Source: Bdellovibrionales bacterium
Lineage (GTDB): Bacteria; Bdellovibrionota; Bdellovibrionia; Bdellovibrionales; CAYMLA01
Assembly (NCBI GenBank): GCA_965217115.1
Contig: OZ244239.1
Span: 1,824,001 to 1,888,000, forward strand
Direction: 5' to 3'
DNA length: 64,000 nt
Shown: one piece after another, positions 28,235 to 53,763 of the stretch
Numbering within the stretch: position 1 is the stretch's first letter
Layout: each line of letters opens with the position of its first letter
The notes under the pieces: generated by a model
What the model was told of the DNA's origin: nothing
The model's input: only the letters and a program-made list of their open reading frames with translations
Databases searched by the model: none
Program-made: the position numbers and the translations under genes

Positions 28235-28310
28235 GCTGGTTTAGCTCAGTTGGTAGAGCAGCTGATTTGTAATCAGCAGGTCATCAGTTCGACTCTGGTA
28301 ACCAGCTCCA
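28235..28310 (+). tRNA. tRNA-Thr(TGT)
   Basis: Cloverleaf with GCTGGTT/AACCAGC acceptor stem, anticodon TGT, TTCG T-loop and encoded CCA. Confidence 0.96.
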
Positions 28311-28387
28311 ATTTTTTGCTCTTTGATATTTGATTGTTTTTTTAGGTTCATCTTTTGTTGGTTCTTGTTTGGCAAAAGATCCCCTGT

Positions 28388-28472
28388 GGAGGAGTGCCCG
28401 AGTGGTTAAAGGGGACGGACTGTAAATCCGTTGGCTCTGCCTACATAGGTTCAAATCCTATCTCCTCCACCA
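28388..28472 (+). tRNA. tRNA-Tyr(GTA)
   Basis: GGAGGAG/CTCCTCC acceptor stem, anticodon GTA, long variable arm and CCA. Confidence 0.96.
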
Positions 28473-28562
28473 TTTATTGAATTCATTATTTGGGTTGAGA
28501 ATTTTTTTTAGAGTGTCGGTTTTTAATTTTTTTAAGCGATGTTGTAAAAATAATTTTTTTGG

Positions 28563-28639
28563 GCGGGAGTAGCTCAATTGGCTAGAGTATTAGCCTTCCA
28601 AGCTGAGGGTTGCGAGTTCGAGTCTCGTCTCCCGCTCCA
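28563..28639 (+). tRNA. tRNA-Gly(TCC)
   Basis: GCGGGAG/CTCCCGC acceptor stem, anticodon TCC and CCA. Confidence 0.96.
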
Positions 28640-28674
28640 TTTTTTGGGTTGTCTGTAATAGTTAGTTTATAGAT

Positions 28675-28749
28675 GCCCATGTGGCTCAGTGGTAGAGCAC
28701 ACCCTTGGTAAGGGTGAGATCGCGGGTTCGATTCTCGCCATGGGCTCCA
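28675..28749 (+). tRNA. tRNA-Thr(GGT)
   Basis: GCCCATG/CATGGGC acceptor stem, anticodon GGT and CCA. Completes the classic Thr-Tyr-Gly-Thr-tuf arrangement. Confidence 0.96.
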
Positions 28750-28848
28750 TTGTTTGAGTTAGAGTTAGTTAAAGAAGAGTTTTAAATTTATTTTTTAATA
28801 TTAAAGTCCTCTAAAATTGAGGACAACATTTCAGAAGGAGTTTTAAGA

Positions 28849-30039
28849 ATGTCTAAAGAAAAGTTTAATCGAGAGAAGCCCCACGTTAACATCGGAACGA
28901 TTGGTCACGTTGATCATGGAAAGACGACTCTAACGGCAGCTATTTGTACGACTCTTGCTAAGTCAGGAGGGTCAGAGGCGATGGCTTATGATCAAATTGA
29001 TAAAGCGCCTGAAGAGCGTGAGCGTGGGATTACTATTTCAACAGCCCATGTTGAGTATGAAACGGCCAACCGCCATTATGCCCACGTTGATTGTCCAGGA
29101 CATGCGGATTATGTAAAAAACATGATCACTGGTGCGGCTCAAATGGATGGTGCTATTCTTGTTGTTTCGGCGGCAGATGGCCCTATGCCTCAAACCCGTG
29201 AGCATATTCTTTTGGCTCGTCAGGTGGGAGTTCCTGCAGTTGTTGTGTATATGAACAAGGCAGACCAAGTTGATGACGCAGAGCTTCTTGATCTTGTTGA
29301 GTTAGAGATTCGGGAGCTTCTCTCTAAGTATGAGTTTCCTGGCGACGATGTCCCTATTATTAAGGGTTCAGCATTGAAGGCCCTTGAGGGAGATGATTCT
29401 GATATTGGGATGAAGTCAGTTCACGCTTTGATGGCGTCAGTGGATGAGTATATCCCAACTCCTGAGCGTGATGTGGATAAGAAATTCTTGATGCCGATTG
29501 AGGATGTTTTCTCTATTTCTGGTCGTGGTACGGTTGTTACAGGTCGTGTTGAGCGTGGAATCGTGAAAGTCGGTGACGAGATTGAAATTGTTGGTATTCG
29601 CGACACAACCAAAACGATTGTGACGGGTATTGAAATGTTCCGTAAGCTTTTGGATGAGGGGCGCGCGGGGGATAACTGTGGTTGTCTGCTTCGTGGTACT
29701 AAGAAGGAAGAAGTGGAGCGTGGTCAAGTTTTGGCGATTCCAGGAACAATCAAGCCACATAAGAAGTTTAAGGCTGAAGCCTATATTTTGACCAAAGAAG
29801 AGGGTGGTCGTCACACGCCATTTTTTAATGGCTATCGTCCACAATTTTACTTTCGTACAACAGATGTAACTGGTGTTGTGACCCTCAAAGAAGGTGTCGA
29901 GATGGTGATGCCAGGTGACCGTATCGAGATGGAAGGTGATTTGATTGTTCCTATTGCCATGGAAAAAGAACTTCGCTTCGCTATCCGTGAAGGTGGTCGC
30001 ACAGTGGGAGCAGGTGTCGTGACGGAGATTGTTGGGTAA
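28849..30039 (+). CDS. tuf: Elongation factor Tu
   Basis: [20 protein letters not shown] and '[13 protein letters not shown]'. Confidence 0.99.
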
Positions 30040-30067
30040 TAGTCTCAATATTTCTTAAATTATAGAG

Positions 30068-30096
30068 TTGACCTTTATTTGAGGGAGCCTTATGTT
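30068..30096 (+). promoter_or_regulatory. Sigma70-type promoter for tRNA-Trp-secE-nusG
   Basis: TTGACC-17 nt-TATGTT. Confidence 0.55.
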
Positions 30097-30177
30097 AGGC
30101 CCCCTTAGTTACATGGGGTTGTTTTGGTGCGTTTTTTGCTCTGTTGCTGAAAAAAATGTTACCTATTTTTTTTTTGC

Positions 30178-30254
30178 AGGGTAGTAGCTCTAATTGGTAG
30201 AGCGAATGACTCCAAATCATTAGGTTGGGGGTTCGAATCCCTCCTGCCCTGCCA
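30178..30254 (+). tRNA. tRNA-Trp(CCA)
   Basis: AGGGTAG/CTGCCCT acceptor stem, anticodon CCA, GGTTCGAATCC T arm and CCA end. Upstream of secE. Confidence 0.95.
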
Positions 30255-42378: not shown

Positions 42379-42753
42379 ATGCCAACGATTAACCAATTAA
42401 TCAGACAGGGAAGAGACGTTAAAAAGAGAGCGAACAACTCTGCCGCTTTGAAAGCTTGCCCACAAAAGAGAGGGGTTTGTACCCGTGTTTATACAACAAC
42501 ACCTAAGAAGCCAAATTCAGCTTTGCGTAAGGTCGCCCGTGTGCGTTTGTCCAATGGACTTGAAGTGACGTCTTATATTCCAGGTATTGGTCATAACTTG
42601 CAGGAGCACAGTGTTGTTCTGGTTCGTGGTGGTCGGGTGAAAGATTTACCAGGTGTGCGTTTTCACATAGTGCGTGGTGTTCTTGATCTTCAGGGAGTGA
42701 GTGGTCGTCTTCGTGGACGTTCTAAATATGGTGCTAAGAAGCCTAAAAAATAA
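42379..42753 (+). CDS. rpsL: 30S ribosomal protein S12
   Basis: 'MPTINQL', '[10 protein letters not shown]' and 'RVKDLPGVR'. Confidence 0.99.
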
Positions 42754-42773
42754 AAAGGAATAAGGGATAAACA

Positions 42774-43247
42774 ATGTCTAGACGCAGTGGTGCTTTTAAA
42801 AGAGAAATTACCCCAGACCCTGTTTACAATGATGTAACAGTGTCTAAGTTTATTAATAAAATTATGTTAAGTGGCAAGAAGAGTGTTGCTCAAAGTGTTT
42901 TTTATGACGCTCTAGAGGTCATTCGTGAAAAAACCGCCGATGAAGAACCTTTGGAGGTTTTCAAAAAGGCCGTTGATAACTGTAAACCTTCTTTAGAAGT
43001 TCGTTCCCGTCGTGTAGGTGGTTCCACCTATCAAGTTCCAGTGGATGTTCGTCCCACCCGTCGTTTGACATTGTCCATGCGTTGGTTGGTTGATTTCTCC
43101 CGCAAGCGTGGTGAGAGTGGTATGGCCCAGCGTTTGGCAGGAGAGTTGTTGGATGCGTCTAATAATCGTGGGAATGCGATTAAGAAGAAAGAGGACATTC
43201 ATCGGATGGCTGATGCGAATAAGGCATTCGCCCACTACAACTGGTAA
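42774..43247 (+). CDS. rpsG: 30S ribosomal protein S7
   Basis: '[11 protein letters not shown]' and '[13 protein letters not shown]'. Confidence 0.99.
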
Positions 43248-43566: not shown

Positions 43567-44361
43567 TTAGGACATGCTGCTAAAGATCCATGAAAATAGA
43601 ATGGAAAATTTAACAAAAAGGATACTAATCACAAGTATAATTACCCCAGATGAATAAAGAGTTATAGAGATTAGAGATTTTCCCAAGCTTTTTAGTGCCT
43701 CTAAAATCTTGTTGTCTTTGTCGTCATTATTCTCATTTGTCTCTTCTTCATCTAATTTTAATGCAGCAACTGGAATTATATAGGAGAGATCTATATTTTC
43801 AATATTAAAATTACTGTTATTTTTATCTTTATTCATACTCTGTAAAGCCATAAGAATTATTTGAGAGATATTTTTTCTACTATCGTCATCAATGACTCTA
43901 GTATTTCCCCCCATATAATTAGAATGCTTTTTCAGTTCTTCCACGACCTCTTTACCTATGCTGGTATTTTCAAATTTTAGGAATAAAGAATTTAAAAATA
44001 AGTTTTTATTTTTTTCAAAGAGTTCTTGAGTGTGTTGATTATAAAGTTTTTGCATCTCTTCCAGATTTCTTTCGATTCCCAAGACCGAATAAGCATTCAA
44101 AAAAACGAAAAATTCACTGATGATAGCTGACAGGGTAAAGCAGAACATCCAAAGAATAGGGCCTTATCCCGAGATGCTTGAGATAGAATTATAATTGATT
44201 AGAAATAGCACCAATGATGTTGAGTAAATTAGTAAGGAATTTTTTGAAAGAGAATAAGATGATTTCGTTATTAAATGGCTAAAGTGGGTTATTATTTCTA
44301 ATGTAAAGATATCTGCATTTATATCAGCAAGGGCAGTGTTAAGGTCGCTCTTTAGGCTCAT
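43567..44361 (-). pseudogene. About 264-codon, 3-TM membrane protein gene interrupted by an in-frame TAA at 44164-44166 (possible retron-linked effector)
   Basis: ORFs 44164..44361 and 43567..44148 share a frame and are separated by one stop (...ISSISG*GPILWMF...). ATG lies 4 nt after the RT stop with a GAGG SD. Confidence 0.7.
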
Positions 44362-44365
44362 GCTT

Positions 44366-45313
44366 TCAAACCTCGTTATTGCTTATAAGTTGTATAGCCC
44401 TGTTTTTTAATTCATTAGAGATATTTTTTTTAAGATTAATATATTTTTCTTTCCCTTCAATTTCTCGTGCCACTTGTACTTTCCCCTGTATAGACTTTAA
44501 ACAAGTAGAAGAGAGTTTAGTTAAGTCCTTATTGACAGCCCTTAGGGGGCTAAAAATTTCTTTTTTTAAGCTATGCTTTGTTGAGTGTTTTCCATTGTGA
44601 ATAACATTACCTGTTACAACTTTAGGACTGTTTTCATCAAAGTATCTTGTTTTCTTCTTTTTCACCTTAATCTCATGCTTTTTGAGCACTGTTCGGATTA
44701 AAGAATCAAGTTTTCTATCAATCCGATAACTTTTGGAGAAGGTCATGTCATCGACATAGAGAGTAAACTTCATTCCTTCCTGTTTTGATAAAGATTGTAT
44801 TTCATCGAAAATAGGTTTATGCATCCAAAAAGCCAGTACAGGGCTTACTGGGCTTCCAGTTGGTAGATAGCCATCTTTAAATATCAAGTCACAAAGAAAC
44901 CAAGATGTATCGGCATTAATTTTTAGGTAATGGTGGAAGAACCTGAAGCCGTACTCAGTCTTACAAGTTGGGAAAAAATTATCAATATCCATGTTTATTA
45001 GGTGTTTGGCTTCAAGGTGAAACTGTGCATTTTTTATATAACTTTCCCCTTTACATGATTTCAGGTAATTAGGTGGTTGAATCTGAGAAAGCAAACTTGC
45101 TAGAATATCATGAAGTTTTCTTAACTTTCCTATTGGTACAGTCGTTAGGCGCACTTTGCCTTTTTTGTCCTTGATGGTCCCATTTTTGAAAAGTTTATTT
45201 CTATCTTTCCAAATAGATTCAAGCTCTTTTCTACTCATGCTAAAAATCTTAGCAAGAAGTCCTTTTCCTTTTAAACAGTATAGTCTATGCTTTTCTTTCT
45301 GTACTAGAGTCAT
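44366..45313 (-). CDS. Retron reverse transcriptase (type VI-like)
   Basis: Retron region X NAQFH, 'DIDNFFP', 'LPTGSPVSP', catalytic YVDD and region Y VTG. 315 aa with no maturase or nuclease domain. Confidence 0.92.
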   Translation of the reverse strand: MTLVQKEKHRLYCLKGKGLLAKIFSMSRKELESIWKDRNKLFKNGTIKDKKGKVRLTTVPIGKLRKLHDILASLLSQIQPPNYLKSCKGESYIKNAQFHLEAKHLINMDIDNFFPTCKTEYGFRFFHHYLKINADTSWFLCDLIFKDGYLPTGSPVSPVLAFWMHKPIFDEIQSLSKQEGMKFTLYVDDMTFSKSYRIDRKLDSLIRTVLKKHEIKVKKKKTRYFDENSPKVVTGNVIHNGKHSTKHSLKKEIFSPLRAVNKDLTKLSSTCLKSIQGKVQVAREIEGKEKYINLKKNISNELKNRAIQLISNNEV

Positions 45314-45599
45314 TAGAGACCTTTTCTACGAATTGGAGAAATTTAAGTATAGATTTACGGAAGAACTCAGGAGTTTTAAATTTTGGATCAGCACTATCAA
45401 GTTGTTCATTAAAAAACATGATAGATGACACCTCGAGGTTAAATATGTTTGCATATTTTTCAATAAGCTTAAGATTTGGCCTTCTTTTATTCGTTTCCAC
45501 TTCAGACAGAAAACCTGGTGAGATTTTTAGTTCTCTGGCCAAGTGGGTTAATTTCTTATCATGATAAACACGAATCAGTCGTAAAGCTTCTCCAATCAT
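45285..45599 (-). CDS. XRE/Cro-type HTH protein of the retron
   Basis: 'GEALRLIR...LARELKISPGFLSEVETNKRRP' HTH. AGGAGAGG SD. Overlaps the RT start by 29 nt. Confidence 0.9.
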   Translation of the reverse strand: MIGEALRLIRVYHDKKLTHLARELKISPGFLSEVETNKRRPNLKLIEKYANIFNLEVSSIMFFNEQLDSADPKFKTPEFFRKSILKFLQFVEKVSNDSSTERKA

Positions 45600-45627
45600 T
45601 TTCCTCTCCTAAAAAAATTAGACTTGG

Positions 45628-45774
45628 TTAGTCACCTCGACTCCCCCAGAAAAGGTCTATAACGAAAAAAACAACTCTAAGGATTAACTTTCGATACTTC
45701 CTTAAAAATTGTCGTCCTTTCTGGTAGGCACTCGGGGTAACACAAAACTGCGGTATTCTTCTTCTTATCTTCAT
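45628..45774 (-). CDS. Unannotated 48-aa small protein, candidate retron toxin: MKIRRRIPQFCVTPSAYQKGRQFLRKYRKLILRVVFFVIDLFWGSRGD
   Basis: Hand-translated: ATG at 45774, TAA at 45628-45630, SD GAGAGG just upstream, ends 28 nt before the HTH start. Below the ORF-track length cut-off. Confidence 0.75.
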   Translation of the reverse strand: MKIRRRIPQFCVTPSAYQKGRQFLRKYRKLILRVVFFVIDLFWGSRGD

Positions 45775-45783
45775 AAAAAGACC

Positions 45784-45832
45784 TCTCTTTGTTATGAAGA
45801 GCTTTATTGCTCTCCTCCCTTGAACAAAGAGA
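45784..45832 (-). promoter_or_regulatory. Hairpin sequestering the small-protein ribosome-binding site
   Basis: Perfect 10-bp arms TCTCTTTGTT/AACAAAGAGA plus an inner GAGAGC/GCTCTT stem. The 3' arm overlaps the SD. Confidence 0.65.
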
Positions 45833-45867
45833 TCGTTCGCAAATTTGCATCACCAAGTCTACTTTAA

Positions 45868-46030
45868 GCACGAGAATTCCCTTTCTCGTGCGGCCTTGGG
45901 GAGTATAATGTCTAAGTAGCTTAGTTAATAAATTACTTAGTCACAATAGGTTTGGCCCCAAGAAGCCTAGTGTTTCCACTAGTCACAGGTACACTTTTTG
46001 TGTACCCCCTTTAATAAGGGAATCCCTATT
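45868..46030 (-). ncRNA. Retron ncRNA (msr-msd) candidate
   Basis: Two short msr-like hairpins (45988-46006; 45967-45982 with a GAAA loop), a long msd-like stem (45895-45962) and a1/a2-like pairing of 46016-46026 with 45873-45883. TATAAT lies at 46040-46045 on the minus strand. Confidence 0.75.
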
Positions 46031-46371
46031 GAATACATCATTATAATTGCAGGTTTTTATCTAAGCTTCAAGAATAAAATTCACCTATAGAAGAATAATG
46101 CGTTAAGTTATGGGAGAATGGTAATATTGCCTTCTTAATATTCTAAAAGAAGAAATATAATTGGAGTTTTTTTTGGGCGAGGCTTGTTCGGGATAACCCA
46201 AATGATAGTCTCATTTAGAAAATAGATTTTTTTCTTTATAGATTTAATCAAACTTCAAGGAGTCGTTTTAAGTTGGCATTTAGGGCTTAGGCTAATCTTT
46301 CAGCAACAGCCCTGGTGATTTTTCTTGCGCTACTTTCGTATTTAGAGCCTCTCTACCTGTTCTTACTTTTT

Positions 46372-49080
46372 TTAAAATTTGGTAACAAATGACTTAAAAT
46401 GATCAATATTCCGAGAGTCTGTGATTTCATCATGAGGAATTAGAAGGTATGCCCAAGGCTTCTTACCATGCTTTTTAGCAAAATCACTTGCTGCACTACA
46501 ATATTCTTGAGCTGCCCTTGCTTTTTCTATTACGTCAGGGCTTTTAAGTTCATTCTTTGCTTTAATTTCCACGAGATAATGATGGGCTTCCGTTTCAACA
46601 ACAAAATCAGGTTCATACAGCCTTGAGTGGTGATCCCAATAAATATTAAATTGCTTAATTGAGGGTCTAAGCCATTTTAAAACTTTCTCATCTTCATCAA
46701 GAAGTGAAGCAAATGCTTTCTCTGGTAAAGAATCAAATTTATAAATAGTATGGCATGATTTCTTATAAAAATCGAAAACCCTTTTTGTTAGTTCCGCTTT
46801 TGTCGCAACATGATCTCTAGAGTCATAAATTTTATCCTCTTTGAACTTGCTATAGTTATGGTTTTCAATTCTTGTAAATGGCTTAATCTGCGCGTCCTCA
46901 AACTTACCAGTCTTACAATAAAATTTTTCCATCATCTGAGCATAGATAAATTCAGCTATCTTAACTCTATAATACTGAATGACATTATCTATTTCAGAGT
47001 CTTTTGAAAGATAAGATTTAAAATGTGCCAAGGCTTCGTCACTAAGTTGGTAAAGTAAATCTCCATGCTCATCATAATCAATTTCATCATAATTCAATAA
47101 CTCTGACACGATTGTCTTAAGCCAACTTTGCTCACCAGAGGAGCTATCGTTTGTCATAGAGTGGGTAAGTGTCTTTTTTTGATCTTGTAGATAACGCACA
47201 AAAATCTCTTCTTCAATAGGCGGAAACTTTGCCATTGTACTGGTATCGAGGTTGAATTTTTTAAAGCCAAATTCAGTGTCATTTTTTAGTTGAATAGTGA
47301 TTCTTGGTATCTCTATTGTATTTTCAATAATTGATTCAATTATTTTTTTATATTTCTCCTCAAAGACTTCATCTACCTGAACATCTTCGAGGTTAATAGA
47401 TAAAACTCCCTGAGATATTTTCTTTTTTATAGCTTTTTTTAATTTATCTTTAACTTCTGCTTTTGATAAATCTTCAATATTGGTTACATTATCGCTATTG
47501 AAGCAGCTTTCAAATAATTCCTTCTCCACTAAAAGCTTATCTGTTTCAACTTTCTTTTCTAATTCATCGTCGATAGTCTCAATTTCAACGGCTCTTTGAA
47601 TAAATTTCTCCTCTACTGGAGTAACAGCTGGAACAACCTCTTGATTCTTCTTGAAAATGTCATCATCAGAATCAATAAAGTATTGTTTCATTACTATAGA
47701 GTTAGGGTCATTAGCTTTTTTAATCAAGTCTTCAAAACTTTCATGGGCCATAACAGTTAAGGTATCAACCTCTGGAACTCCTGTAATTTCACCATATGGA
47801 AGCCGCAATCCCCTCCCCAGTGTTTGCTCTGTGAGAATATTGGCCGCGAATGAACGAAGAGGAACAATTGTGTAAAGGTTAGTCACGTCCCAGCCTTCTT
47901 TTAGCATATTACAATGAATTACTATTTCAAATTCATTCTTAGGGTCTTCTAGCTCTAAAAGCTTTTGAATATTTTCTTCTTTTTCAGTTCCCCTTTGATT
48001 AGAGTGAATCTCAAAGACCTTAGCCGCATATTGTCCATTACAAAAAGATTCAGATTGAATCAGTGAACGAAGTTCCTCAGCATGCTTAGTATCTTGAGCC
48101 ACAACTAAAACAAAAGGGCGAACTAATGGTTTTTTATGATTTCGAGCGTATATTTCAAGATTTGTTTTTGTTATCTCATGCACATGCATAGCATCTGATA
48201 ACTTCATTTTATCAAGCCCCTCGGGTGACAAATCTTTAAGCTGTTTTTTTGTGAGATTTTTCCTCGTTGCCGCTGCGGGCTCTTTAACAAAGCCATCTTT
48301 AATTGCATGGGCCAGTGTGTACTCATATACAATGTTTTTAAAGGGGACACCTTTGGTTGATGTAGGAGTTGCTGTTAGTTCTAAGCCCAAGATCGGTTTC
48401 AACTCATTTAGAACTTCCATGGCCCTAGATGCTCTATAGTGATGAGACTCATCCATTAACAAAACAAGGTCTTCAGTATTTTGTAAAAATTGAAAATAAG
48501 ACTCTCCAAAGTATTCAGAAATTCTTCTAATCTTTGGAGATTTCCCTCCTCTTGCTTCAGAATTTATTTTTGAGATATTAAAAATATTTATGATGACCTC
48601 ATCTGAAAAAAGGGGGGTTTGACCAAAGCGATCTAGAGAAGTTTTTTTTACCGTATTAGTTCTTAAATAATTATCACCAGTGATAACTTTTGGTTCAATC
48701 TGTATCCCCTTAAAAACATATTTAGGATGGGTGTTTCTACTAAAATCAATAATCAATTTATTATAAATGGTTAAGTTAGGAGCCAAAACTAAAAAATTTC
48801 TCAAGCCTTTTTCTTTATAAAGATAGCTGATAAAAGCTCCCATAAGCCTAGTCTTTCCTACTCCTGTTGCTAGAGCAAAAGCTACTGAAGGAAAGCCACG
48901 TTCAAAATTAATTAGCTTGTCAAACTCTCCACACCTTTTAAATGTTAATAAAGCGTCATCTAATTTTATATTTTTATTTAATTCAATACTTGAAATGAGT
49001 TTTGATAATATTTCAAGACTCTCCCTTTGTGGCTTTCTCAAGCTTAATCTTTGGTTTACATAATTGATATTTGAACTCAT
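46372..49080 (-). CDS. res: Type III restriction endonuclease subunit (Res)
   Basis: Walker A ATGVGKT, DESHH, 'LTATP', 'EGWDV', 'QTLGRGLR' and C-terminal PD-(D/E)xK 'EPDFVV...VEIK'. Confidence 0.9.
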   Translation of the reverse strand: MSSNINYVNQRLSLRKPQRESLEILSKLISSIELNKNIKLDDALLTFKRCGEFDKLINFERGFPSVAFALATGVGKTRLMGAFISYLYKEKGLRNFLVLAPNLTIYNKLIIDFSRNTHPKYVFKGIQIEPKVITGDNYLRTNTVKKTSLDRFGQTPLFSDEVIINIFNISKINSEARGGKSPKIRRISEYFGESYFQFLQNTEDLVLLMDESHHYRASRAMEVLNELKPILGLELTATPTSTKGVPFKNIVYEYTLAHAIKDGFVKEPAAATRKNLTKKQLKDLSPEGLDKMKLSDAMHVHEITKTNLEIYARNHKKPLVRPFVLVVAQDTKHAEELRSLIQSESFCNGQYAAKVFEIHSNQRGTEKEENIQKLLELEDPKNEFEIVIHCNMLKEGWDVTNLYTIVPLRSFAANILTEQTLGRGLRLPYGEITGVPEVDTLTVMAHESFEDLIKKANDPNSIVMKQYFIDSDDDIFKKNQEVVPAVTPVEEKFIQRAVEIETIDDELEKKVETDKLLVEKELFESCFNSDNVTNIEDLSKAEVKDKLKKAIKKKISQGVLSINLEDVQVDEVFEEKYKKIIESIIENTIEIPRITIQLKNDTEFGFKKFNLDTSTMAKFPPIEEEIFVRYLQDQKKTLTHSMTNDSSSGEQSWLKTIVSELLNYDEIDYDEHGDLLYQLSDEALAHFKSYLSKDSEIDNVIQYYRVKIAEFIYAQMMEKFYCKTGKFEDAQIKPFTRIENHNYSKFKEDKIYDSRDHVATKAELTKRVFDFYKKSCHTIYKFDSLPEKAFASLLDEDEKVLKWLRPSIKQFNIYWDHHSRLYEPDFVVETEAHHYLVEIKAKNELKSPDVIEKARAAQEYCSAASDFAKKHGKKPWAYLLIPHDEITDSRNIDHFKSFVTKF

Positions 49081-49107: not shown

Positions 49108-50766
49108 TTATAAGTCTTCTTGAATTGGCTCTATGATATTGAGGCTATAATCATCTTTTCCAAACTCACAACGACCAAGTAACATTTGTGGAATTTTCTT
49201 AAGAGTTATATTTGGATATTTGTCTTTTTTAACTCTAAAAGCCTTTGCACATATTAAAAGAAATTCATTTTCTGACATTTGGCTATAAATTCTATCTAAA
49301 TGTTCAGAGGTTAAAAATTGAGTAGTAACAAAGATAAAATCTTTTTCAGATGAAAATCCTTGTTTCCAGTAAACAGTTTCATTTGGATAAAACTTAAATT
49401 TTTCATGCTTACATACTGCCTCTGACAACTGTATTGCATTATATTCTTTATTAATAACCCAATTTCCTCGATCATCTTTTTGCAATAAGCTTGGAGCAAG
49501 ATCATAAAATGTAAAACCACTCCCCCCATTCCAGTTCATAATTTTGGTAATTCCACTCGCATCCTTTCCTTTTACAACATTAGACAATCTTTTATGACAA
49601 TGTGAAAATGAATGATCTCTTAATTCTATACCAATCCACTTTCGATTCATCTTGTGAGCAACACTAGCAGTAGTTCCTGATCCTAAAAATGAATCAAGAA
49701 CCCAATCCCCTTCTTCCGTGCTCATATCCAGGCAACGCTTAATTAATAATTCAGGTTTTTTTCCATTAGGAAAGCTAACATCACCTTCTTTGTGTAAATT
49801 GTTTGATAATAAATCATCCCAAATTGTTGATAAAGCTTGTCCTGTTACGTACCTATTATTTATGAACTTAATTTTGCTGCTATAGAAAAGAAGTTGCTCG
49901 CCATTTAAAAAATAGTGATCAGGCTTTCCATCTCGTTCACATCTATAAACCTTATCAGCATTTTTTCTTGATAAGTCTAAAAATTCCCGAGCATCTGAAC
50001 TTACATCCTTATCTTTAATTCTAGCGGTACGAACAACGCGCTGAGGCTCCTTCAACACAAAGTCATTAAACTTATTCTCAAGTTCATCTTCATATTTTTT
50101 CTTAAGCTCTTTCTGTTTGCAGTGTAAATTTTTTGCCAATGCGGATCTTAAAGTGACTAGATTCCAATTTTCAAAGGACTCATCATAATTTTCAATATAC
50201 TTGGAGTAGCGACTGTCCCTATCAGTTTCAGTAAATGTTTTGAATGACTTCCATTTACTTTTATCTTTTGCGTAGACAAGGATATAATTCGCTGTAGATA
50301 CTAGTCCCGGGTTTACTGCTTTTGGCCCAGAAACCGAACTTTGTTTAAAAGTTACCATCGAAACTCTATTTGAACGGCCAAATATTTCATCAGTTAGTAC
50401 ACATAAATATGCAAATTCATTATCATCTATGTGAATAAAGAGAGTCCCTGATTCATGCATTAGGGAATGAATAATCTCCAGACGGGACTTCATCATTGAG
50501 AGCCAAATTGAGTGCTCAACTCCATCATCGTAATGCTCAAAAGCTTGTTGTGTATTAAAAGGAGGGTCTATATACACACATTGAATTTTTTCTTTAAAAC
50601 CGCTCTCTAAAGCTTTCAATGCGAGTAGGTTATCTCCATGAATTAACATATTTTCACTTTTTGTGCCCTCTGATTTCTCATCAATTGGCATAAGTATTCT
50701 TGGCTCCAGAATGGAAGTATCATCTTTCCCAACCCAATCTAACTCTAATCTTTGCTTATAGCTCAT
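49108..50766 (-). CDS. mod: Type III DNA adenine methyltransferase (Mod)
   Basis: 'IHGDNLLAL', catalytic DPPF, 'KKPE' and SAM motif 'DSFLGSGTT' in beta-class order. Confidence 0.9.
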   Translation of the reverse strand: MSYKQRLELDWVGKDDTSILEPRILMPIDEKSEGTKSENMLIHGDNLLALKALESGFKEKIQCVYIDPPFNTQQAFEHYDDGVEHSIWLSMMKSRLEIIHSLMHESGTLFIHIDDNEFAYLCVLTDEIFGRSNRVSMVTFKQSSVSGPKAVNPGLVSTANYILVYAKDKSKWKSFKTFTETDRDSRYSKYIENYDESFENWNLVTLRSALAKNLHCKQKELKKKYEDELENKFNDFVLKEPQRVVRTARIKDKDVSSDAREFLDLSRKNADKVYRCERDGKPDHYFLNGEQLLFYSSKIKFINNRYVTGQALSTIWDDLLSNNLHKEGDVSFPNGKKPELLIKRCLDMSTEEGDWVLDSFLGSGTTASVAHKMNRKWIGIELRDHSFSHCHKRLSNVVKGKDASGITKIMNWNGGSGFTFYDLAPSLLQKDDRGNWVINKEYNAIQLSEAVCKHEKFKFYPNETVYWKQGFSSEKDFIFVTTQFLTSEHLDRIYSQMSENEFLLICAKAFRVKKDKYPNITLKKIPQMLLGRCEFGKDDYSLNIIEPIQEDL

Positions 50767-50775
50767 AATATCCCC

Positions 50776-53763
50776 TTAAATGATTTTCCACTTTATTTTT
50801 ATTATATTCTTTTCTTTATGTTCTAATTTCATTCGTTTTTCAATATCTTCAATTAAATGTTCTTTTTCTTTTTCAATACGATCTTGTTCTTCAAAAAGCT
50901 TTCTTCTCATGTTATTTCTCTTCTTCTCAAGATTTTTTGCTACTCTCTGCGCCTTAACTTTTTTATCTAAAAGGCTGATATTTTTTGAATCTTTCTTTAT
51001 TTTCTTAATCTCCTTATCAAGTTCTTTAATCTCGATCTCAAGACCCTCTTTAATGTCTTCGCTCCATTTATCTAATTTTTCAGACTCCTCGATAAAGAAT
51101 GAATGATTGCGTTTTTCAATTTCCTTTAAATACAAAGACGTTGTCTGATCTTTAATTTTAAAAAGACTTTGTTCTACCTGTTTAGAAGTTTCGTCATTAC
51201 AAGATGAGACAGAAGCATTAATGTTGAACATTTTTCGAATTACTTCTGCTGGCACGTCATCTCCATCTTTAGTTATACCAACGTATACCATCTCTTCACT
51301 ATGATCTAATGAATTAACATTAAGCAAGCAGATTTCTAGCCAGCCAGATTGACCAATATATTCCTCTAAAGCTGTTATTTTATTTTCATAAGAAGATAAA
51401 TCAAACGTCAGGCTAGCTAATTCGAGCTGGGAAGATTTTGCGTTCTCGATAACTCTCTGGCCAAGCGGATGGTTTAACCTATAGCTATGTGAATCACCCT
51501 CTCTTTCTTGGCCTTTAGAGATCATTTTATATGCCCCAAGCTTGTATTGACCGGGAGAAATCTCTGAAAATGGGGATTTTTTTAACTCAAAAGAATAATT
51601 TGAATCGTCGAAATCAGCATATTCATTTAGCGTGTTCTTTGTCAGGTTCCAAAACATATTAGAGACATTATCCACCCTTTTTTCTGCTTCATCTAACTGC
51701 ATTTTTAATTTTGAATGAACATCTTCATCAAATTTCTTTAAAACAATATTCTTTGTTTTGCTTAATTTTTCTGAAATTTGTTTAGAAGAAGATATTTGTA
51801 GGTTCTCAAAGGCCTCACTAATTTCCTCTTCAGTTCGACAGGACATATATATCTTTAAAATTCTCTTTTCAATATCGTGACCGTCTATAATATCACCAAG
51901 TACTTCGTCACTTGCACCAAATGCTCCACGAAATAAATTGAACTTTTCCTGCAAGAGTTCTAAAATTCTCAAGTCAGCAATGTTTTTGGTATTTACAAAA
52001 TTAACCACTATTACGTCTAATTTTTGACCATACCTATGACAACGACCTATTCGTTGTTCAATCCGTTGTGGGTTCCATGGCAAATCATAGTTAATTAAAA
52101 GGTTACAAAATTGTAAATTAAGCCCTTCCGAGCCAGCTTCAGTTGTGAGAAAAATTTTTTTGACCTCTTTAAACTGCTTAACGAGAAACCTTCTTTCTTC
52201 TGCTCCTCCTGAATCACCATTAAATATTACGACTTCATTCTCTACATCTATTCCCATCTCTGACAGCCTTCTCATAATGTAGCCCTGGGTTGATCTAAAT
52301 TCAGTAAAGATAACGGCTTTTTCTGGCCAACCTTCATGTCGTGCCTTTTCAAATTGTTGGGTTAAAGCATTTACCAAGGCATCGGCTTTTTTATTTTGCT
52401 TGATTTCCAAACTCAGAACAATCATTTTCAAAATAATTTCTGATTCTTCCTGAATCTCTTCAGAACTGAACAGCGTTGTTGCTTCTTCAGGATTCTGAGA
52501 GTTTTCTATATCTTGATCTGAATAATTCTCTTTAACCTCACCTTCTTCTTCAGAAACCTCCTCAACAGGAGTGTTACTTTTAAAAGATTTTTTCAAGCCT
52601 TCATAATTTTTTGAAATAAGGTCAGCAAAGAGTTTTTTCTCAAATTTCTCTAGTGCTTCTGATTTTCTCCCATCATCAAGAGTTAAGCTTTGAGTAATAC
52701 TGTCTAATAAACTATTAAATAGGGTCTCATTGTCAATAGAAACGGTTGCCAAAAGAAGCCTTTTATATAAATTTAAAAGGCTGTTTTTTATCGCAAAGGT
52801 TGAGCTTGCAATAAGTTTTAAGTAAACAAGTGTTAACAATGGAAGGGCCGAGGCAGGAATAGAGATAAGAGTTTCTCTTCTTAGGAAGATTTCAAAGCTG
52901 ATCCTCAGTTCTTCTTCATAGTCTGTAGGGTCATAGGTAAAAGTAACGGTCTTTCTGTTGGTATAATTAATATATTCAAGAACATTTTTTCTAAGTTCTC
53001 TTCTAAAGAAATTTTTCATTCGACTTTGTAGCTCTATCATTTGACCCTCACGAACAGAGTCAGACAAATTACAAAAAAGACTTTGAAAGCTTTCTCTTGT
53101 TCCTAAAATGTATTCATCAACAAAGCTTGTGAGTCCATAAAGCTCCATTAGGTGATTTTGCATAGGAGTCGCGGTTAAAAGTAATTTTTTAAATGGCTGA
53201 AGAGTGTCTTTGATACGTTTAGCACGCTTTGCTTCCTTTTTTCCTTTTTTCCATACATTTCTCAATTTATGAGCTTCATCTATAACAATTAAATCCCATG
53301 CTTCCTTTTTAATAATTTCATGATAGCTATCTACAGAATGTTCATTTGTAATAATTATTTTTTCTTCTCTATTTAGTGGGGTTTCTTTTTCTGGATTATT
53401 TATTTTCTTAAAATCTTGCCCTGCCATGATTTCACTGTCTAAAAAGAAGAGATTTGATAATTCATCTTTCCATTGATGGCGAAGTGACTTAGGAGCGATG
53501 ATTAAAAATGATCTCTTCCCCTCAGCCCATAGCTGTGAAAGAACAAGACCTGCCTCAATTGTTTTTCCAAGGCCAACTTCGTCAGCTAAAATACATCCTT
53601 TACTCAAAGGGTTCTTCAAAGCAAATATTGCTGCATTTATTTGATGAGGATTTAGGTCAATACAGGCATCAAACATTGCCTGAGAAAGACGATTAACTGA
53701 ATCTCCAGCTTGAAGCAGTGATAATTCATGTGCGAATAATTTAGCGTGGTAGTTAGTGTTCAA
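50776..53763 (-). CDS. SNF2-family helicase/ATPase associated with the type III R-M operon
   Basis: LADEVGLGKT, DEAH, LLTATPMQN, EGLNLQ, WNPQRIEQRIGR and a coiled-coil C-terminus. TTG start. Confidence 0.9.
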   Translation of the reverse strand: MNTNYHAKLFAHELSLLQAGDSVNRLSQAMFDACIDLNPHQINAAIFALKNPLSKGCILADEVGLGKTIEAGLVLSQLWAEGKRSFLIIAPKSLRHQWKDELSNLFFLDSEIMAGQDFKKINNPEKETPLNREEKIIITNEHSVDSYHEIIKKEAWDLIVIDEAHKLRNVWKKGKKEAKRAKRIKDTLQPFKKLLLTATPMQNHLMELYGLTSFVDEYILGTRESFQSLFCNLSDSVREGQMIELQSRMKNFFRRELRKNVLEYINYTNRKTVTFTYDPTDYEEELRISFEIFLRRETLISIPASALPLLTLVYLKLIASSTFAIKNSLLNLYKRLLLATVSIDNETLFNSLLDSITQSLTLDDGRKSEALEKFEKKLFADLISKNYEGLKKSFKSNTPVEEVSEEEGEVKENYSDQDIENSQNPEEATTLFSSEEIQEESEIILKMIVLSLEIKQNKKADALVNALTQQFEKARHEGWPEKAVIFTEFRSTQGYIMRRLSEMGIDVENEVVIFNGDSGGAEERRFLVKQFKEVKKIFLTTEAGSEGLNLQFCNLLINYDLPWNPQRIEQRIGRCHRYGQKLDVIVVNFVNTKNIADLRILELLQEKFNLFRGAFGASDEVLGDIIDGHDIEKRILKIYMSCRTEEEISEAFENLQISSSKQISEKLSKTKNIVLKKFDEDVHSKLKMQLDEAEKRVDNVSNMFWNLTKNTLNEYADFDDSNYSFELKKSPFSEISPGQYKLGAYKMISKGQEREGDSHSYRLNHPLGQRVIENAKSSQLELASLTFDLSSYENKITALEEYIGQSGWLEICLLNVNSLDHSEEMVYVGITKDGDDVPAEVIRKMFNINASVSSCNDETSKQVEQSLFKIKDQTTSLYLKEIEKRNHSFFIEESEKLDKWSEDIKEGLEIEIKELDKEIKKIKKDSKNISLLDKKVKAQRVAKNLEKKRNNMRRKLFEEQDRIEKEKEHLIEDIEKRMKLEHKEKNIIKIKWKII

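Follow-up and report, generated by a model that had tools for sequence, protein, structure and literature searches.

The 64,000-nucleotide (nt) stretch of Bdellovibrionales DNA analyzed here, which we call the window, carries on its minus strand a structured RNA (46030-45868) followed in order by an open reading frame (ORF) for a 48-amino acid small protein (SP), a helix-turn-helix (HTH) gene and a reverse transcriptase (RT) gene. The 104-amino acid Cro/C1-type HTH protein (45285..45599, minus strand) matches Pfam HTH_3 (1.4e-6) and PADLOC HTH_VI (6.9e-28). The 315-amino acid retron RT (44366..45313, minus strand) matches Pfam RVT_1 (2.6e-12), NCBIfam and PADLOC RT_VI (1e-71), the last across residues 11-290 and with RT_III-A as runner-up PADLOC type (4.7e-42). 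Given the RT_VI and HTH_VI scores of these downstream genes, the locus is a Type VI retron: the RT belongs to the Type VI clade, the HTH gene overlaps the RT gene (by 29 nt) and an SP ORF lies between the noncoding RNA (ncRNA) and the HTH gene. The motifs YVDD, NAxxH and TG (VTG-type), which mark canonical retrons, are invariant in the RT alignment. The nearest RT relative in a search among 5.8 billion proteins is 37% identical, so that the window has no near relative, and the locus is a new and distant member of a kind already known.

We interpret the stretch 46030-45868 as the msr-msd part, on the 5' side, of the hybrid RNA made by a Type VI retron, an anti-phage abortive-infection system; to this interpretation as a whole, with the mechanism set out below, we give a probability of about 0.7. 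Judged from sequence, an element at the 5' end of this RNA is complementary to two direct repeats, DR1 and DR2, further along it, and the three-way match changes together from locus to locus; this conserved three-motif set probably controls the small toxin gene. An initial annotation, made from the letters of the window, had described the stretch as a retron ncRNA whose mutually exclusive folds might gate RT priming. Its assignment to the retrons is borne out by the two Type VI genes directly downstream and by a covariance model built from this stretch alone, which picks out the corresponding RNA at further Type VI loci.

The RNA domain begins behind a putative minus-strand promoter read by eye (46040..46071), composed of TTGAAG (46071-46066) and TG-n-AATTAT or TATAAT ending at 46040, which would set the transcript start near 46036-46031; at the equivalent place, related loci have stronger sigma-70-like promoters. 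The 5' element, GGGAUUCCCUU (46016..46026; 'anti-DR' in our labeling and the a1 strand of the initial annotation), has a core, AUUCCCUU, that is complementary to the repeat motif, and the element is masked by a weak local hairpin of 7 base pairs (bp), H1 (AAUAGGGAUUCCCUUAUU, 46013..46030, -4.7 kcal/mol). Two msr-type hairpins follow, H2 (45987..46008) and H3 (45967..45982, with a GAAA loop), and a run of five Gs lies just 5' of H2 and enters it (46005..46009). Beyond them stands a long msd stem-loop (45895..45962), the presumed template for reverse transcription, in which CUUGGGG (45962-45956) pairs with CCCCAAG (45901-45895) in the outer stem and CUAAGUA with UACUUAG in the inner stem. The domain ends in a perfect 9-bp, 24-nt G+C-rich hairpin, GCH (45868..45891), with arms GCACGAGAA and UUCUCGUGC and loop AGGGAA. 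The initial annotation had drawn each of these folds, including that of the 5' segment with its own flanks, and we recovered them all where it had placed them. A 7-mer, GUGACUA, occurs three times on the minus strand, between H2 and H3 (45980-45987), in the msd stem (45938-45945) and across the SP stop codon (45628-45635); GUGA also stands between the two msr hairpins of locus L182.

The predicted fold of a 181-nt stretch beats 200 of 200 shuffles (z -4.6) and that of a 471-nt stretch 100 of 100 (z -7.4). Folded as DNA, the complement of 45964-45866 forms a 5' hairpin and a long stem (z -4.7). The 5' element can pair with AAGGGAAUUCU (45883-45873), as the initial annotation had claimed, through 11 contiguous pairs, nine Watson-Crick and two G-U (duplex energy -15.5 kcal/mol). 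The minimum-energy fold contains the two local hairpins, H1 and GCH, not this long-range helix, and the penalty for forcing the helix is +4.6 kcal/mol when the 172-nt domain is folded and +3.9 kcal/mol for the 437-nt transcript. At a cost of about 4 kcal/mol the long-range and local folds are exclusive, as that annotation had it, yet near in energy, and the models make alternation between them plausible. An end-to-end helix of at least 11 bp arose in 74 of 2000 dinucleotide shuffles, and the long-range helix is therefore weak evidence on the sequence of the window alone; a perfect 9-bp hairpin was matched in 14 of 2000. That the complementarity exceeds chance is shown by comparison with related loci and not by the sequence of the window.

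The SP ORF (45628..45774, minus strand) was too short for the first ORF list. Its product, the presumed toxic effector, has a basic N-terminus and a hydrophobic C-terminal helix. SP-like ORFs occupy the same place in other Type VI loci: among 1891 small ORFs searched with phmmer, seven matched (E 0.0011-0.0073), and a profile from these seven recovered further ones. The window SP resembles SPs of other, non-proteobacterial loci; it has no match in Pfam, NCBIfam, PHROGs or PADLOC. A 64-amino acid ORF in another frame that overlaps it (45871-45677) was treated as spurious, having no family match and resembling none of the listed SP candidates.

In the predicted fold, the ribosome-binding site (RBS) of the SP gene and its start codon are sequestered in stem-loops. 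The RBS-hiding structure (45760..45817) comprises an apical hairpin (45817-45794), the RBS region AACAAAGAGAGG (45793-45782) and a hairpin with the AUG (45781-45760), and an anti-RBS strand, CUCUUUGUU (45823..45831), pairs with the SP RBS in the minimum-energy fold. An inverted repeat (IR) frames this region: IR1, GACUUGGU (45852..45859), pairs with IR2, ACCAAGUC (45628-45621), which lies beyond the SP stop codon and is followed by a run of seven Us (45617-45611; IR2 and run together, 45611..45628). The predicted IR1-IR2 helix encloses the whole coding part, and helix and U-run together possibly form the 3' end of the hybrid RNA. The run starts three bases past IR2, as it does in L067, L047, L060, L123 and L161. 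We rejected the U-run after IR2 as a general terminator, its frequency of 28 in 58 clusters versus 21 in 58 for a control segment being no significant enrichment.

To place these parts among related systems, we gathered 80 loci from genome contigs by an RT-alignment scan, a few from kin genomes and 80 from metagenome contigs; the alignment-based scan took the place of a single-protein RT scan of genome contigs, which gave 119 pattern matches and no relatives. The HTH gene precedes the RT gene in 77 of the 85 first-set loci. The same order of RNA elements recurred in the minimum-energy folds of nine loci and of five further ones, and in loci with a window-like SP it runs from a 5' hairpin or leader through two hairpins, a long stem and a perfect G+C-rich GCH to an A-rich linker, IR1 and an RBS-hiding structure. 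Automatic picking of the hairpin without the repeat signature described below erred in about 20 of 73 loci. We annotated GCH in 39 of 49 first-set clusters (37 energy-based picks kept by eye and two made by hand), omitting ten as uncertain (L026, L035/L044, L063, L065/L070, L068, L077, L080, L096, L102 and L103), and in 46 of 58 second-set loci, dropping the remaining 12, in which no hairpin had the repeat. In 85 related loci, the msd stem is followed by a GCH, and no two of these hairpins share a stem sequence. Within an alignable family of 18 loci, compensatory changes affect 11 of 11 GCH pairs, 5 of 6 H2 pairs and 5 of 7 H3 pairs. On this comparison of sequences, the hairpin that the initial annotation had listed as a local alternative is a conserved element.

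The window itself joins this pattern. A covariance model built from this stretch of the window alone matched, over its full length, 7 of 20 further loci of Type VI, with E values of 4e-4 (L033), 1.4e-3 (L107), 4e-3 (L050), 9e-3 (L079), 0.013 (L153), 0.014 (L182) and 0.038 (L034), and all seven matches end at the independently annotated GCH. In an alignment that includes the window (A8), 93.9% of cells are paired and compensatory changes occur in 9 of 9 GCH pairs, 7 of 8 H2 pairs and 6 of 6 H3 pairs, figures that lean towards the structure because the alignment was fitted to it. No Rfam family reached its gathering score in the region, and at E values up to 10 a single chance-level match of 12.1 bits appeared.

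The loop of GCH carries DR1, AAGGGAA (45877..45883), and an internal loop of the RBS-hiding hairpin, beside the anti-RBS strand, carries DR2, AAGGGAG (45815..45821); the six identical nucleotides, AAGGGA, recur 46 nt after GCH. DR1 and DR2 are the direct repeats published for Retron-Vpa2 (Zhang et al., 10.1101/2025.10.22.683967). In 32 of 35 clusters the apex of GCH is exactly repeated over at least 6 nt at 39-60 nt downstream, compared with 10.3% of cross-locus pairs, and none of 50,000 permutations reached the observed sum. The motif itself differs by locus (AAGGGA in the window and CGUGAG, UGUGAGAG, AGAGUGA, CAAAGUGA, UGGAUGG or CCGGGAG elsewhere). A 22-nt stretch of SP-coding sequence (45716-45737) is 73% identical to 45880-45901, the end of the msd stem with the 5' arm and beginning of the loop of GCH, and includes AGAAAGG; this likeness could be chance or a further decoy copy.

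For each of 58 clusters we searched the segment from -215 to -85 nt for the longest stretch able to pair, by Watson-Crick pairs throughout, with the 11-12-nt apex of the hairpin. The summed complement was 319, compared with a permuted mean of 262.3 (standard deviation (sd) 6.5), a value reached by none of 50,000 permutations. Complements of at least 6 nt were present in 23 of the 58 clusters but in 11.3% of cross-locus pairs, and those of at least 7 nt in 11 clusters but in 2.7% of such pairs. A sense-strand control on the same clusters had no excess (263 versus 265.1). For 23 clusters fetched after the parameters had been fixed, the sum was 128 against a permuted mean of 105.7 (sd 4.1), again with no permutation among 50,000 reaching it. 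When the longest match was sought over 260 nt, its mean length was 5.72 within loci and 5.07 across loci, without clear separation. The match in the window is the longest of all, with 8 Watson-Crick nucleotides, or 11 when G-U pairs are counted.

The alignable family allowed the covariation to be followed position by position. Its leader reads CUGGUC-NN-[5-mer]-CUAAAUUGGAG, and the 5-mer tracks the repeat: CUCCC stands with GGGAG, GUCCC with GGGAC, GCCCC with GGGGC, CUCCU with AGGAG and AUCCC with GGGAU. Compared with DR2, 84 of 90 cells are Watson-Crick, a count that no permutation among 20,000 reached, and one position shows three different types of Watson-Crick pair; two poorly scoring loci are shifted by one column and fully paired in register. 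Compared with the hairpin copy, four pairs of the 5-mer are 97.2% paired, two of the four with compensatory changes. An alternative pairing returned by RNAalifold for the 18 loci, of the CCC of the 5' element with a GGG at the base of the msd, was rejected, with no compensatory support.

The likeness between the repeat copies lets the 5' element fit either of them. Among loci with differing copies, five members of the alignable family (L051, L073, L090, L104 and L058) have an element that tracks the downstream copy; in L027, L047, L030, L114 and the window (8 versus 6 Watson-Crick nt) it tracks the hairpin copy. Over the clusters, the downstream copy is the better partner in 13 and the hairpin copy in 7, with 16 ties; the remaining 22 have differing sites or matches below 5 nt and include the window, whose downstream copy this count mis-assigned. 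Both contacts may be used.

These results bear on how the two folds should be read. In the initial annotation the 5' element and the loop and 3' arm of the hairpin pair like a1/a2, and the local alternatives could gate RT priming; on this model the duplex would set a priming G at the start of the template. The 5'/3' complementarity that it noticed is conserved by covariation, and the 5' element does lie, like an a1, at the very 5' end of the likely transcript; the 11-bp helix is within reach energetically, and the hairpin copy is the better partner in the window and the seven clusters counted above. In Vpa2, moreover, the HTH protein represses reverse transcription, so that gating of some form exists (10.1101/2025.10.22.683967, preprint text). 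What is not supported is the canonical priming duplex. For it to form, the hairpin that holds its 3' strand would have to open, yet this hairpin is itself conserved, with compensatory changes at every pair. No G adjoins the 5' element: AUUAAAG follows it, putting the first G at a distance of 7 nt, and three relatives have an entire hairpin between the match and the conserved G. That G, which immediately precedes H2, does not vary across the 18 aligned loci (A4) and matches the run at 46009-46005 in the window; by analogy with the layout of canonical retrons, it is the best candidate for the priming G. Canonical retrons leave a2 uncopied. GCH, however, corresponds in position and size (24 nt, versus 23) to the repeat-bearing 5' stem-loop of Vpa2 multicopy single-stranded DNA (msDNA) as described in the preprint text (10.1101/2025.10.22.683967), and would on that comparison be template rather than a2. 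In relatives the match is short (5-8 nt), centered on the loop and equally good with the DR2 copy, and the five alignable-family loci with differing copies side with DR2; a helix of this length alone is also within the reach of shuffles, as noted above. A canonical a1/a2 priming switch is thus less likely than a role in control of toxin translation, and we consider it unlikely.

A different possibility is that the two sites published for Vpa2 suffice, the msDNA loop pairing with DR2 and the 5' complementarity being a by-product without function. The repeat pair is the strongest signal in our data, a broad first test of the 5' element was not significant (see below), and msDNA supplied in trans from another retron is enough to turn on Vpa2 SP translation (10.1101/2025.10.22.683967, preprint text). 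A by-product sits poorly with co-change in many independent motif types (UCCAUCCA/UGGAUGGA, CUCACGA/UCGUGAG, AUCACUC/GAGUGAU, CGUCCCAA/UUGGGACG and GUCCC/GGGAC) and with the flat sense-strand control. In Retron-Sen3, according to the text of a second preprint, deleting or unpairing the stem-loop beside the 5' inverted repeat abolishes defense (Garcia-Rodriguez et al., 10.64898/2026.04.27.721009). We regard a by-product as quite improbable. The 5' element might instead act as an anti-Shine-Dalgarno for the HTH RBS and so control HTH translation: in the predicted fold of the transcript, taken to begin at its presumed start, UUCCCUU is paired with the AGGAGAGGAA region of that site, and Sen3 has a predicted short stem in which its HTH RBS pairs with sequence immediately following the 5' stem-loop (10.64898/2026.04.27.721009, preprint text). 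Across the 58 clusters, however, the vicinity of the HTH start has no motif copy specific to the locus (own sum 233, permuted mean 239.4, with 17,083 of 20,000 permutations reaching it), and in many loci the repeat motifs do not resemble a Shine-Dalgarno sequence. Control of the HTH gene by this route therefore seems to us very improbable.

We favor a role for the three matched motifs in control of toxin translation, which can be outlined by analogy with the published systems. As in Vpa2, RT would copy the msd stem and GCH (45962-45868) into DNA whose 5' hairpin has the loop TTCCCT; this loop would read like the 5' element and match DR2. On the pattern of the Vpa2 and Sen3 preprints, pairing at DR2 would free the toxin RBS and the infected cell would arrest. 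Our own proposal concerns the 5' element. In the resting state it would be held off DR2 by H1 or by the GCH loop, the latter being the contact that the initial annotation had called a1/a2, and once GCH is copied or covered by msDNA it would be released and move to DR2. The two predicted folds would then more probably be states of a translation-control relay than of a priming gate. Since the 5' element reads as the DNA loop does, such a relay would explain the joint change of the three sites, which a two-site model does not require. It also accommodates activation by msDNA in trans and the requirement for the 5' stem-loop of msDNA. Extended to Type VI hybrid RNAs in general, this three-part arrangement would make the 5' element the RNA counterpart of the msDNA loop: at rest it would sit on the loop of the hairpin that becomes the msDNA 5' end (or, in the window, partly in its own weak hairpin), be set free by reverse transcription of that hairpin or by cover from msDNA fully complementary to it, and open the RBS from the downstream site; we offer it tentatively, as a possibility that we would not yet bet on. 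If it is true, msDNA acts by strand displacement on its own template, instead of or besides the 7-nt contact, and the same contact could also set the RT start site.

Several observations weigh against this interpretation. The broad first test of the 5' element (13-14-nt apex, 200-nt span, G-U pairs allowed) was not significant, with 2509 of 20,000 permutations reaching the observed value, and the narrower span and query were picked after the match positions had been seen, which leaves just the 23-cluster set free of choice. The 11-bp version of the match in the window has no close relative for near comparison. Pairing of the 5' element with DR2 would form a pseudoknot, beyond the scoring of folding programs, and costs +13.9 kcal/mol when imposed as a nested pair. 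A promoter scan found no minus-strand site at 46040-46071, and the transcript start rests on the reading by eye. A covariance model of the best-sampled subfamily (R1, 18 loci) did not find the window RNA beyond a 3.1-bit local match on the hairpin; none of the 11 loci in the subfamily of the window is found by it either, although five sister-group loci are, so that this model reaches near kin only. The equation of GCH with the Vpa2 stem-loop draws on size, position and preprint text. Finally, Sen3 is described as making single-stranded DNA constitutively, with its toxin controlled after translation (10.64898/2026.04.27.721009, preprint text), a caution that some Type VI lineages exert control at that later stage.

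The surroundings of the retron are those of a defense island. Directly upstream on the minus strand lie genes for a Type III restriction enzyme (46372-49080, PADLOC REase_III, 5.7e-172), a methyltransferase (49108-50766, MTase_III, 1.2e-157) and a DrmD-like SNF2 helicase (50776-53763, DrmD, 1.1e-160). The island is adjoined by rpsL and rpsG (42379-43247, plus strand), and a cluster of five tRNA genes lies at 28235-30251 on the plus strand. Two minus-strand ORFs directly downstream of the RT gene, of 65 amino acids (44164-44361) and 193 amino acids (43567-44148), have no match in Pfam, PADLOC, NCBIfam or PHROGs. In 34 of 58 Type VI clusters the palindrome TCGC-N5-GCGA stands immediately upstream of the promoter (about 180-280 nt upstream of GCH, for example in L064, L107 and L123); it is a possible operator for the HTH protein. 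This palindrome is absent from the window, where the same place has a different, imperfect one, ATTCACCTATAGAAGAAT (46079-46096).

Type VI is the one retron type whose reverse-transcribed DNA turns a toxin on rather than holding it off. The window adds a distant member that keeps the whole RNA layout despite an RT of at most 37% identity to any relative in the search. Comparison with related loci adds a conserved further site, complementary to the two published repeats and co-varying with them, where the RNA begins at its 5' end; with it, how Type VI retrons are controlled can be put to a direct test. Such hybrid RNAs may also matter for engineering, as candidates for programmable switches.

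Compared with a canonical retron such as Retron-Eco1 (Ec86), the window has the same YVDD/NAxxH/VTG-type RT, msr hairpins followed by a long msd stem, and complementary 5' and 3' segments; unlike it, the window is without a terminal a1/a2 pair that has an adjoining G, and its RNA continues into coding sequence. The closer likeness is to Vpa2, the Type VI retron of Vibrio parahaemolyticus, as its preprint text describes it (10.1101/2025.10.22.683967). [quoted passage not shown] The window shares with Vpa2 the order of structured RNA, SP, HTH and RT, an msr-msd arm followed by stem-loops with the SP RBS and AUG, inverted repeats flanking the SP region, a short direct repeat in the msd-side loop and the RBS-hiding structure, and a stem-loop of about 23-24 nt at the 3' end of the template. 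It differs in its remote RT, in its repeat, AAGGGA(A/G), with six identical nucleotides, and in the 5' element complementary to the repeats. The running text of neither Type VI preprint mentions such an element; in that of Vpa2, complementarity refers to msDNA with DR2 or to methods.

Sen3 and the cl2075 ncRNA, as the text of their preprint presents them (10.64898/2026.04.27.721009), resemble the window in a 5'-terminal stem-loop beside the 5' inverted repeat, a long msd-type stem, IR1-IR2 pairing around the SP and predicted alternative conformations. In Sen3 that conserved stem-loop, just upstream of this 5' inverted repeat, is essential for defense. Both preprints, in their text, leave open how the 7-nt repeat acts and how RT is primed (10.1101/2025.10.22.683967; 10.64898/2026.04.27.721009). 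The window also differs from Sen3 in its RNA. The basal stem of Sen3 has the SP RBS itself within its 3' inverted repeat, whereas in the window a local anti-RBS strand hides the RBS; and the 5' element of the window matches the repeat motifs rather than the RBS.

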